A stretch of DNA of 64,000 nt from Parasphingorhabdus sp. (GTDB lineage Bacteria; Pseudomonadota; Alphaproteobacteria; Sphingomonadales; Sphingomonadaceae). This document shows, piece by piece, positions 13,807-14,896 of this stretch. The translations under genes were made by a program, and so were the position numbers. The stretch lies in assembly GCF_039977335.1 (NCBI RefSeq), contig NZ_JBDWDI010000002.1:68122-132121 (forward strand). The letters run 5' to 3'. Position 1 is the stretch's first letter; each line of letters begins with the position of its first letter. Below the pieces are notes generated by a model. That model saw nothing but the letters and a program-made list of their open reading frames with translations. It made no database searches and was not told the origin of the DNA.

Positions 13807-13830
13807 GTTCGCTTTATCCCGGAAGCGGAC
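13807..13830. repeat. Short palindromic site GTTCGCTTTATCCCGGAAGCGGAC
   Basis: 8-bp stem with one G.T pair, 1 nt from the stop codon of the M23 gene; similar to 14868-14896. Confidence 0.55.
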
Positions 13831-13831
13831 G

Positions 13832-14767
13832 CTAGAAACAATCACCGCGCGCCATAAAACGGTCACCAAAACTCATATGAACCGGATTTCCATGGCGCTT
13901 TGTGTTTCCATCCTCGACGATAGTTTCTGCATGAATATGTAGGTGCGGTTCAATCGTATTGCCAGAATTGCCTATATGCCCAATCTTCTGTCCTGCTTTT
14001 ACGATCTCACCGAGCTGTGTCAGTACACTGCCGTGTTTCAAATGATGCAAATGAACATGATGCGTTCCACACTTTAGTACCACACCGTTCCCTCCCGTGT
14101 TGATTTTATCTGATTCACCTATGGCTTGGTCTGGCGAATCATTCTCATACTCCACGACCTTCCCGTCACAAGGTGAATAAACAGCCGTATCGAACATTGC
14201 ATAGTGCCGCATGTCCTTAGGTTTTGGATCAAGTCTGTGCTCAGGCCGCGTTCTGAATCCATTGGGACCGACCCTAATAATGTCTAGGCCATATGTTTGT
14301 GCAATGTCTCTGGGACTGTCGCTCGGAAAATTGTGAAAATTCAAAAGTGGCGATAACCCGCCAGACAAAACGCAAATTCCTTCTGCCGACTTGAAAGGTG
14401 AGTCTAAAGCGATCGCATCGCCCTTTGGTTCAAAGCGCCCCGCAGTGCCTTGCCAGAGTAGAAAACTGCCTAAAGGTATCAATATCAACAAAGGCGCGTT
14501 GCTTATGATACTGCGCAAAAGAGTTGTTTGTGATCGGGTTTTGCGGAGATGAGCTATAAATAGGCCAACAAAAACCAAAGCGGCAATCAACAGTCCACTC
14601 AATGGTGGGTAAAACCACACTCCGCCCACGCCTAAACCTGCACAAAACAATATCGTCGCAATTACCTTGATGGCAGTATCTGCAGCTGTTCTGCGTTTAG
14701 AGAATGCAATCCATAAACCCGTCAAAATCAACAATGTAATTTGAGCGTATATGGCATCTAGTAGCAT
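13832..14767 (-). CDS. Membrane-anchored M23-family metallopeptidase (AT-rich accessory gene)
   Basis: About 4 N-terminal TM segments; VYSPCDGKV, GNGVVL, HL.HL, IGHIGNSGNTIEPHLHIH; ATG 14767 follows GGAGG (the ORF track starts at TTG 14782). Confidence 0.8.
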   Translation of the reverse strand: MLLDAIYAQITLLILTGLWIAFSKRRTAADTAIKVIATILFCAGLGVGGVWFYPPLSGLLIAALVFVGLFIAHLRKTRSQTTLLRSIISNAPLLILIPLGSFLLWQGTAGRFEPKGDAIALDSPFKSAEGICVLSGGLSPLLNFHNFPSDSPRDIAQTYGLDIIRVGPNGFRTRPEHRLDPKPKDMRHYAMFDTAVYSPCDGKVVEYENDSPDQAIGESDKINTGGNGVVLKCGTHHVHLHHLKHGSVLTQLGEIVKAGQKIGHIGNSGNTIEPHLHIHAETIVEDGNTKRHGNPVHMSFGDRFMARGDCF

Positions 14768-14786
14768 CCCACCTCCCGTCAAGCAC

Positions 14787-14827
14787 GTGTATTATATATA
14801 TAATACACATTGAGCGAGAACTGTCAA
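14787..14827 (-). promoter_or_regulatory. Sigma70-like promoter with an overlapping 22-bp perfect palindromic operator
   Basis: Minus strand TTGACA(14827-14822)-N16-TATTAT; palindrome GTGTATTATATATATAATACAC at 14787-14808. Confidence 0.65.
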
Positions 14828-14867
14828 AACTTCGTTAGTATGCAAGAGGACTGAAGCCGCTTATCAA

Positions 14868-14896
14868 ATGTCCGCTTTTGCGCCCTTAACGGACAT
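14868..14896. repeat. Short palindromic site ATGTCCGCTTTTGCGCCCTTAACGGACAT
   Basis: ATGTCCG/CGGACAT stem; core resembles 13807-13830. Confidence 0.55.

Follow-up and report, generated by a model that had tools for sequence, protein, structure and literature searches.

The M23 metallopeptidase gene between tyrC and plsC in a 64-kb stretch of a Parasphingorhabdus genome (the window; C2:68122-132121 of the 3.54-Mb source genome G000, which is in 5 contigs) is probably the cargo of one cassette in a lineage-specific cassette system based on site-specific recombination, in which the tyrosine recombinase int208 would be the enzyme. The two palindromes bracketing this gene belong to a family with two site types, A and B, which flank low-GC accessory genes in a preferred order, and inside which the homology between relocated cassettes ends. 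A preliminary description of the window had proposed that these palindromes may be recombination sites delivering single genes, and this proposal was borne out, for cassettes of one or a few genes, by the pairing of the sites and by comparisons of cassette positions among species. The comparisons argue for a real cassette system, integron-like in effect and of a new design, whose enzyme and crossover we infer.

Two palindromic site types flank low-GC cassettes throughout the genome

The two site types have a 9-bp stem in common and differ in their centres, the A consensus being GTCCGCTTT-TGCGCCC-AAAGCGGAC and the B consensus GTCCGCTTT-ATCCCG-AAAGCGGAC. Their arms extend to 9-11 bp inverted, (AAT)GTCCGCTTT / AAAGCGGAC(ATT), around asymmetric centres of 6 nt (B) or 7 nt (A), and inverted arms around a 6-7-bp centre are the layout of a tyrosine-recombinase core site, which has inverted binding arms and an asymmetric centre of 6-8 bp. 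A whole-genome Hamming scan, allowing at most 5 mismatches to the two consensuses, found 97 copies (46 A and 51 B), while shuffled genomes yielded 0 copies and nothing below 6 mismatches. Conserved short flanks, cTAAY on the 5′ side and AYTAG on the 3′ side, accompany the copies, and the loop sequences are conserved too. Mismatches are concentrated in the outer arms of both types: genome-wide, the B copies carry 123 in the left arm, 12 in the centre and 20 in the right arm, and the A copies 24, 15 and 54, respectively. All 9 pairs are retained in just 3/51 B copies, in which type the outer-arm changes are uncompensated, and half of the A copies have a fixed T.T mismatch at position 17. Most copies (90/97) are intergenic; 37 of these 90 lie in convergent-gene gaps, which make up 13% of the intergenic length, and 15 copies lie between divergent genes.

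Within the 64-kb window, the two sites beside the M23 gene are the only matches of at least 8 bits to the family position weight matrix (PWM), and shuffled windows gave about none. A third hairpin at 44875-44902, upstream of the other AT-rich gene, had been regarded as related; it is ruled out as a family member by a matrix score below 8 bits, and has only GCTTTTGC..AAAGC in common with the A site.

The copies are arranged directionally around their cargo. Among the 43 pairs of neighbouring copies less than 6 kb apart, 26 consist of a B followed by an A in the same orientation, and none of 20000 label shuffles reached this number (mean 6.0, maximum 16). The 26 B...A units span 0.4-6 kb and have a GC content of 0.481, against 0.529 in their flanks, being lower in 25/26 units (p 1e-6); the genome scan suggested earlier for an enrichment of the sites at the borders of low-GC accessory genes therefore gave a strong signal. 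Lying in both directions relative to B-to-A, the cargo consists of unrelated accessory genes, unique within the genome, and no cargo repeated within the genome was found; it includes the M23 peptidase, major facilitator superfamily transporters, a P450, a GGDEF-EAL protein, GFA-domain proteins, DUF4238, PEP-CTERM proteins, EF-hand proteins, and LysR/GntR regulators with partner genes. The reverse order, A then B, occurs almost solely as a tight composite in which 11 nt (AYTAGCGTTGT) separate the A site from the B site, and this composite is the joint between consecutive cassettes, as at C4:987059-991111. Its consensus folds into one long hairpin (-22.8 kcal/mol, z -8.3), made up of an outer stem, an internal loop of both centres, an inner stem, and an 11-nt apical loop.

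Other repeats adjoin some of the sites. A variant ending in CCCCAATTTCGGAC lies upstream of several B sites, and a ~190-bp repeat with a terminator-like start, AAAAAGCCCCGCC..., adjoins several B or A sites (in G000 at C1:442976-443170, 443913-444096 and C1:168098-168290, and at C4:1210925, 1581102 and 1816116), being present as an inverted pair inside cassette U5.

So far, the expanded network is known only from one clade of Parasphingorhabdus, a group of marine species. Of 61 species genomes of the genus, about 21 have 10-105 hits to the motif SCCSAWAGCGGAC and the remainder are at background, and B-to-A pairs are also visible in the hit lists of other species. Among other genera of the order, 120 genomes had no more than background counts of this motif, and the recurrence of such palindromes across alphaproteobacterial genomes, as stated in the preliminary description, did not hold. 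No exact A site was found on 2.9 million viral contigs, and no Rfam family matches the locus containing composite sites. Among 72,556 plasmids, the A-spacer-B consensus had one match only, on a plasmid of Duffyella gerundensis (NZ_LN907828.1:447492-447561), which is weak (66 nt, 77.5% identity, E 1e-3) and probably due to chance.

Cassettes move between loci and species with breakpoints inside the sites

Two cassettes were found at unrelated positions in different genomes. The GFA-gene cassette U23 (G000 C4:1711726-1712269) occurs at three unrelated loci in three species, G000, G153 and G010, where the identity of the flanks is at random level among the three copies, while the cargo is identical at 495/497 positions between G153 and G010 and ~90% identical between G000 and either of them. 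The similarity changes inside the boundary sites. At the B site, the centre and inner arm are identical at 14-15/15 positions pairwise (15/15 for G153 and G010) and the outer arm at only 4-6/9 (4/9 for G153 and G010); at the A site, the inner arm and centre agree at 15-16/16 positions (15/16 for G153 and G010) and the outer arm at 5-8/9. Since the cargo is near-identical and the outer arms differ, mutational decay cannot account for these hybrid sites, which mean exchange within the sites. The M23 cassette itself recurs, 92% identical, in an unrelated neighbourhood of another Parasphingorhabdus genome (locus L044), where A-spacer-B composites lie on both sides of it; the homology with the window covers 13802-14885, fading inside the A site, and 4/9 positions of the B outer arm differ (GTTCGCTTT in the window, GTCCGCAAT in L044) beside adjoining sequence that is ~92% identical.

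Conversely, single loci hold different cargo in different species. Downstream of an rnpB-like RNA gene, G000, G017 and G157 hold unrelated cargo between conserved B and A sites, with two tandem cassettes joined by a composite in G017; the occupied genomes share conserved outer flanks, with similarity ending at the inner feet of the sites, while six species have a site-free gap of ~44-50 bp at this place. Similarly, at a clpX-side locus, the cargo lying between B and A differs among G000, G149, G010 and G140, and G007, G011 and G001 have short site-free gaps. By these alignments, the moving unit has its ends at the centres of B and A, the recipient locus keeps its own outer arms, and cassettes transfer as modules between loci and between species.

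The RNA gene bordering the rnpB-side hotspot (end ACAGAACCCGGCTTACAG; L045 8540-8690, corresponding to G000 C4:44540-44690, and also in L051-L058) is one that we take, from reading by eye, to encode RNase P RNA. The cassette-bearing genomes have at this locus an extra terminator-like hairpin, GGCC-AAAA-GGCC-TTTT, which the empty-site genomes lack.

The M23 cassette is inserted at a variable junction between two core genes

In the window, the M23 cassette occupies 13802..14896 on the plus strand, from the B site through the M23 gene to the A site, and is unit U8 of the 26 in the genome. To its left lies the core gene tyrC, which codes for a prephenate dehydrogenase with PDH_N and PDH_C domains (12861..13769, plus strand) and is kept in 29/31 relatives, and to its right a core plsC-like gene with an acyltransferase domain (14912..15601, minus strand). 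The B-type site (13802..13835, plus strand) has the core GTTCGCTTT-ATCCCG-GAAGCGGAC at 13807-13830, in full GTTCGCTTTATCCCGGAAGCGGAC, between the left flank GTTGA and the right flank GCTAG; it scores 38.7 bits on the PWM and has 2 mismatches to the B consensus. Only 1 nt separates this core from the M23 stop codon (13832-13834, CTA on the plus strand), which falls inside the right flank of the site. The A-type site (14865..14899, plus strand) has the core GTCCGCTTT-TGCGCCC-TTAACGGAC at 14870-14894, in full GTCCGCTTTTGCGCCCTTAACGGAC, between the flanks CAAAT and ATCAT; it scores 45.6 bits and has 3 mismatches to the A consensus, every one in the diverged outer (right) arm. Both palindromes, and the 1-nt distance to the stop codon, had been located correctly in the preliminary description, which considered them imperfect repeats of each other that each form a hairpin. 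They are indeed diverged copies of the two types, but since stem pairs have been lost from both, their folded single strands do not stand out as hairpins (z -1.0 and -2.1).

The cargo gene (13832..14767, minus strand) encodes a membrane-anchored protein of 311 aa with a Peptidase_M23 domain (Pfam E 4.5e-11), and the same-species assembly GCA_039981415.1 also calls it as a 311-aa gene. As had been noted, it is AT-rich, the gene and the cassette having ~46% GC against ~56% in the surrounding flanks. The promoter of its own that had been ascribed to it is supported by a predicted sigma-70-type match, TTGACA-16 nt-TATTAT (14800..14827, minus strand; 11/12 positions), inside the cassette between the A site and the M23 start codon. 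A 22-bp perfect AT-rich palindrome, GTGTATTATATATATAATACAC (14787..14808), overlaps the -10 element of this promoter and could be an operator travelling with the cassette.

The M23 gene was not found in the tyrC-plsC gap of any of 30 relatives. In three of them, G018, G007 and G014, the tyrC and plsC stop codons are 0-7 bp apart or overlapping, and the single hairpin whose presence at an empty site would have spoken for cassette excision is lacking there, no palindrome lying between the two genes. In twelve others, the gap of 0.4-10 kb is filled by unrelated gene sets, without an A or B site; in the two closest relatives, it holds a different single low-GC gene, likewise without either site. 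In the species itself, all contigs found to code for the identical tyrC or M23 protein (14 per protein, from 6 samples) share one arrangement, and no strain with an empty site was found among the 14 contigs carrying either protein. That relatives lacking the gene also lack both hairpins had been named beforehand as an observation that would count against cassette mobility; since the sites are absent from this junction in relatives and the species has one arrangement, we read it as both sites having come with the cassette and the insertion having become fixed in the species, and not as a failure of the cassette idea. The M23 cassette in the window is probably a now-immobile member of the family, fixed in place, because int208 is a pseudogene in G000.

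A small tyrosine recombinase is associated with the sites

The preliminary description had recommended a search for a co-occurring tyrosine recombinase or HUH transposase, and the first of the two was found. A scan for Phage_integrase domains in site-rich versus site-poor genomes identified int208, a tyrosine recombinase of 208 aa that comprises little beyond the catalytic domain (a Phage_integrase match), is nearest to Xer-type recombinases, and is weakly Fim-type (NF007370, E 1e-5, 25 bits versus a cut-off of 221). Few other recombinase or transposase genes were detected in G000. Orthologs of int208 (at least 76% identity) are present in 11/21 site-bearing and 0/40 site-free genomes of the genus (Fisher p 8e-7). 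The gene is intact in six of them (G155, G017, G149, G008, G145 and G157), with the catalytic residues legible in the motifs LRGCD, RKTG, HSLRR, LGH and KYL, and a pseudogene or fragment in five (G000, G151, G180, G175 and G010). Besides this co-distribution, the recombinase gene stands directly beside the sites: all 6 copies examined (two in G155 and one each in G017, G149, G157 and G000) are bracketed in the order A(+), ~72 nt, gene, 1 nt, A(-), the stop codon lying inside the cTAAT flank of the downstream A site. The gene is found in the densest cassette arrays, which point towards it from both sides. On this genomic association, int208 would be the enzyme running the cassette system.

An intact 210-aa paralog, int210 (L106; G000 C4:1017091-1017720), is 55% identical to int208 and is also present in site-free species. 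It has A/B-like variant palindromes on both sides, such as GACCGCTTTGCGCCCCAGTTTCGGTC and GTCCGCTTCTGGGGGTGAAAGCGGAT (L106; L081, L082, L085), which may point to a second, parallel site family.

The recombinase family has more than 8000 homologs, many from marine alphaproteobacteria; members of 70-80% identity occur in Hellea and Marinicaulis and in numerous genomes from marine metagenomes. Neither A/B sites nor nearby repeated palindromes were found in four homolog contexts, which came from Hellea, from Marinicaulis and from two metagenome genomes. Among 300 genomes sampled from the class, nine, each of a different family, had int208 homologs of 54-63% identity; in all 7 whose downstream sequence could be read, a GC-rich perfect palindrome with 8-10-bp arms, a 6-7-nt centre and no T tract follows 5-15 nt past the stop codon. 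The pairing of gene and palindrome may therefore be general across the recombinase family.

A model for cassette exchange and the points that weigh against it

Based on the layout of the sites and the breakpoints within them, we propose that int208 would bind the shared arms as a simple tyrosine recombinase and exchange strands at the centres. Since the centres of A and B differ, a cassette could not delete itself by BxA recombination. Cargo could be swapped between loci having both B and A, by BxB plus AxA exchange; alternatively, AxA or BxB recombination between neighbours might cut out a cassette as a circle and integrate it, a route that would yield A-spacer-B joints, and cassettes would be strung together through A-11 nt-B junctions. 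Entry at a naive locus might start from a circle joined by A-spacer-B and opened in the spacer, which is conceivable because the window copy keeps near-consensus outer arms and the spacer-like GTTGA on its left.

Several points weigh against this interpretation. First, entry at site-free loci does not follow from the model, as tyrC and plsC abut without a site in G018, G007 and G014, and it is unusual for one recombinase to act on centres that differ in length (7 and 6 nt). Second, the link between enzyme and sites is incomplete. The int208 gene of G000 (C4:935854-936480) is a pseudogene that lacks a start codon, is interrupted by an in-frame TAG and reads HSLKR in place of HSLRR, and the A sites flanking it are decayed (3 and 5 mismatches); 10/21 site-bearing genomes have no int208 ortholog, two of them, G011 (67 site hits) and G153 (81 hits), having neither int208 nor int210; and the test of association between int208 and the sites ignores phylogeny. 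Third, in two genomes of two other families, a count of the palindrome beside the int208 homolog gave only 1-2 copies each, and the expanded system may be peculiar to this clade. Fourth, the tyrC-plsC junction is a general hypervariable insertion hotspot across the genus as well. Finally, the evidence comes entirely from sequence comparison, from which recombination and binding are deduced.

Alternative explanations

The alternative that survives best accepts the same cassettes and recombinase and differs in the substrate, which would be folded single-stranded DNA as for the attC sites of integrons, the composite forming one long hairpin that is recombined on one strand. We regard it as unlikely. 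The attC layout is R-box, central spacer, L-box and terminal loop, which the long hairpin of the composite consensus resembles; the fixed T.T mismatch in half of the A copies recalls the extrahelical bases of attC, and stop codons lie in the site flanks, like those of integron cassettes. However, it is sequence that is conserved, loops included, and not structure alone, and the outer-arm changes are uncompensated. Moreover, the cassettes end between A and B, which is the would-be apical loop and not the base of the long hairpin, solitary cassettes carry half a composite at each end, and no IntI is present. A search of the whole genome with the integron-integrase model TIGR02249 gave XerC/XerD-like genes as the best matches (74-75 bits versus a cut-off of 265), and int208 scores 19 bits on it. 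The attC- or REP-like single-strand mechanism offered in the preliminary description is not supported, given the conserved loops, the few fully paired B copies, and the cassette boundaries lying inside the palindromes.

Less probable still is that the palindromes are passengers, and that cargo is turned over by homologous recombination between the conserved flanking genes after DNA uptake, as for 'minimal mobile elements', at convergent-gene gaps that tolerate insertions. The tyrC-plsC gap indeed varies from 0 to 10 kb across the genus with most occupants lacking an A or B site, and several other loci are hypervariable in site-free species too; but this explanation cannot account for unrelated loci that hold identical cassettes whose homology stops within the palindromes, for the strict B-to-A polarity, or for the lodging of the recombinase gene between A sites; as a full explanation, it is already contradicted.

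That the sites are selfish repeats of the repetitive extragenic palindromic (REP) or miniature inverted-repeat transposable element (MITE) type, spread by the REP-associated transposase RAYT or a DDE transposase and accumulating beside recently acquired genes, is very improbable. Such repeats would match the ~100 short, palindromic, intergenic copies and their enrichment in convergent-gene gaps, and the genome has one RAYT gene, RAYT being weakly associated with site-bearing genomes (8/21 versus 2/40). In 7 genomes, inverted ACGGTGACAG repeats flank the RAYT, with A/B sites near it in just two of the seven; an eighth copy stands outside this count, as its contig of 730 bp includes no flanks. 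The gene is absent from 13/21 site-bearing genomes, including G157, G155 and G011. There are no target-site duplications, the mean longest flank repeat being 2.3 nt versus 2.5 nt for mismatched pairs, and two site types are directionally arranged around the cargo.

Terminators or RNA-stability elements are hardly credible as the only role of the hairpins, although site 1 lies between the convergent tyrC and M23 genes, site 2 lies downstream of plsC, and many copies lie at gene 3′-ends, since there is no T tract, neither window site was called by a terminator scan, the consensus flank is AYTAG, copies occur between divergent genes with sequence-conserved loops and flanks and without an Rfam match, and a terminator role would leave the mobility data unexplained; as the sole function it is already contradicted, which leaves room for a secondary terminator effect.

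Other candidate enzymes were considered and rejected. RAYT, a Y1 HUH protein, is flanked by another repeat in the 7 genomes with readable flanks, and many site-rich genomes lack it; as the HUH half of the search recommended earlier, the sole Y1 HUH gene therefore yielded no candidate, and an IS200/IS605-type element is rejected in the same way, as the sole Y1_Tnp gene of the genome carries its own, different repeat. DDE-type transposition or a MITE was rejected because the ends are inverted-repeat-like but lack a target-site duplication. The Xer/dif system was rejected because the A/B arms, ATGTCCGCTTT / AAAGCGGACAT, are unrelated to the host dif, TAGGTTGATAATATATATTATGTTAAAT (G000 C4:182172), which reads TAGGTTGATAA-TATATA-TTATGTTAAAT. 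Three dif-like sites, at C4:602515, 965664 and 1016964, share ATAATTTATCTTATGT; one dif-like site abuts an A site, and another lies between a B-like site and the int210 gene.

The RAYT-type Y1_Tnp gene of G000 (C1:288116-288781, in L001 at C1:287950-289090) encodes 221 aa and is flanked by inverted GGATTACGGTGACAGT arrays. It forms a classic REP-RAYT unit with the same arrangement in 6 other species of the genus, the G017 protein being 99.5% identical, and an open reading frame for an RHS-type C-terminal toxin lies just upstream (C1:286565-287473).

Comparison with known systems

In function, the system is closest to integrons and to the dif modules of Acinetobacter, and in logic to engineered exchange between heterospecific sites; by the features that define them, it does not qualify as an integron, an Xer module, a REP/RAYT element, a MITE or a terminator. 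Like integrons, it has a tyrosine recombinase gene beside arrays of small cassettes with one or few accessory genes each, imperfect palindromic sites between the cassettes into which stop codons can fall, and solitary cassettes and clusters without an integrase. Unlike an integron integrase, int208 lacks the IntI-specific insertion, has only 208 aa, and falls far below the cut-off of the integrase model. Each cassette has two different sequence-conserved sites of 24-25 bp, whereas the single attC of an integron cassette is conserved in structure and spans 57-141 bp; the cassette boundaries cut through the composite here, whereas the integron crossover is in R' at the site end. Furthermore, the cargo lies in either orientation with its own promoter, as the match upstream of M23 suggests, while integron cassettes are mostly promoterless and co-oriented behind Pc/attI; and the cassettes here are at ~26 dispersed loci, with arrays converging on the recombinase gene from both sides.

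In Acinetobacter, XerC/XerD move accessory-gene modules from replicon to replicon, and the pdif sites bounding these modules are ~28 bp long, with a 6-bp centre between inverted arms (PMC6449649, PMC13141974). Discrete accessory-gene modules, sites on both sides and a simple tyrosine recombinase are common to both systems. However, the arms of A and B are symmetric, suggesting a homodimer-type site, and have no resemblance to the host dif; a dedicated small recombinase appears to be used in place of the housekeeping Xer proteins; the system is chromosomal; and its sites are directly oriented and of two kinds, whereas those of dif modules are inversely oriented and of one kind.

Short intergenic palindromes in ~100 copies per genome, often paired and lineage-specific, are also a feature of REP/REPIN-RAYT systems, but the RAYT of this genus has its own flanking repeat, and the A/B sites are directional around cargo and linked to a tyrosine recombinase. 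The DNA invertases of the FimB/FimE type are likewise proteins of ~200 aa that are essentially a catalytic domain, with short inverted repeats beside their own gene; however, int208 matches them weakly, and Fim enzymes flip a promoter switch and move no cassettes. The tycheposons of Prochlorococcus are larger elements with full-size integrases and tRNA-gene targets, and are not known to use a palindromic two-site cassette network. What they have in common with the present system is that they are tyrosine-recombinase-based cargo elements building flexible islands in marine bacteria (bioRxiv 10.1101/2020.12.28.424599).

The combination of identical arms and incompatible centres, which would prevent self-excision and permit a swap, with the outer arms staying with the locus, is found in engineered cassette exchange. 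Recombinase-mediated cassette exchange is an engineering method that uses Cre with loxP/lox511 or Flp with FRT/F3, and is an artificial design, whereas the exchange described here is deduced from aligned copies. We know of no natural counterpart of cassette exchange between heterospecific sites, and no description of such a system was found in the searchable literature, which is not proof of its absence. The system described here may be such a counterpart, in which a catalytic-domain-only tyrosine recombinase acts on two incompatible palindromic sites with shared arms; this is a tentative reading, which we hold to be somewhat less probable than its opposite. If it is true, a gene caught between B and A would be a portable module for dozens of chromosomal landing pads, across species.

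In conclusion, integrons and Acinetobacter dif modules are the best-known recombinase-defined movers of single-gene cassettes in bacteria, and the system reported here would join them with a different construction: a pair of short heterospecific sites for every cassette, a recombinase of 208 aa, and dozens of landing pads scattered over the chromosome. Should the enzyme act as deduced, it would provide a very small natural recombinase and a ready-made orthogonal site pair, useful to genome engineers. The system offers a concrete, testable mechanism for gene-by-gene turnover at the hotspots of marine bacterial pangenomes, and related systems with lineage-specific sites may exist elsewhere, feeding the turnover of the flexible genome in marine bacteria.

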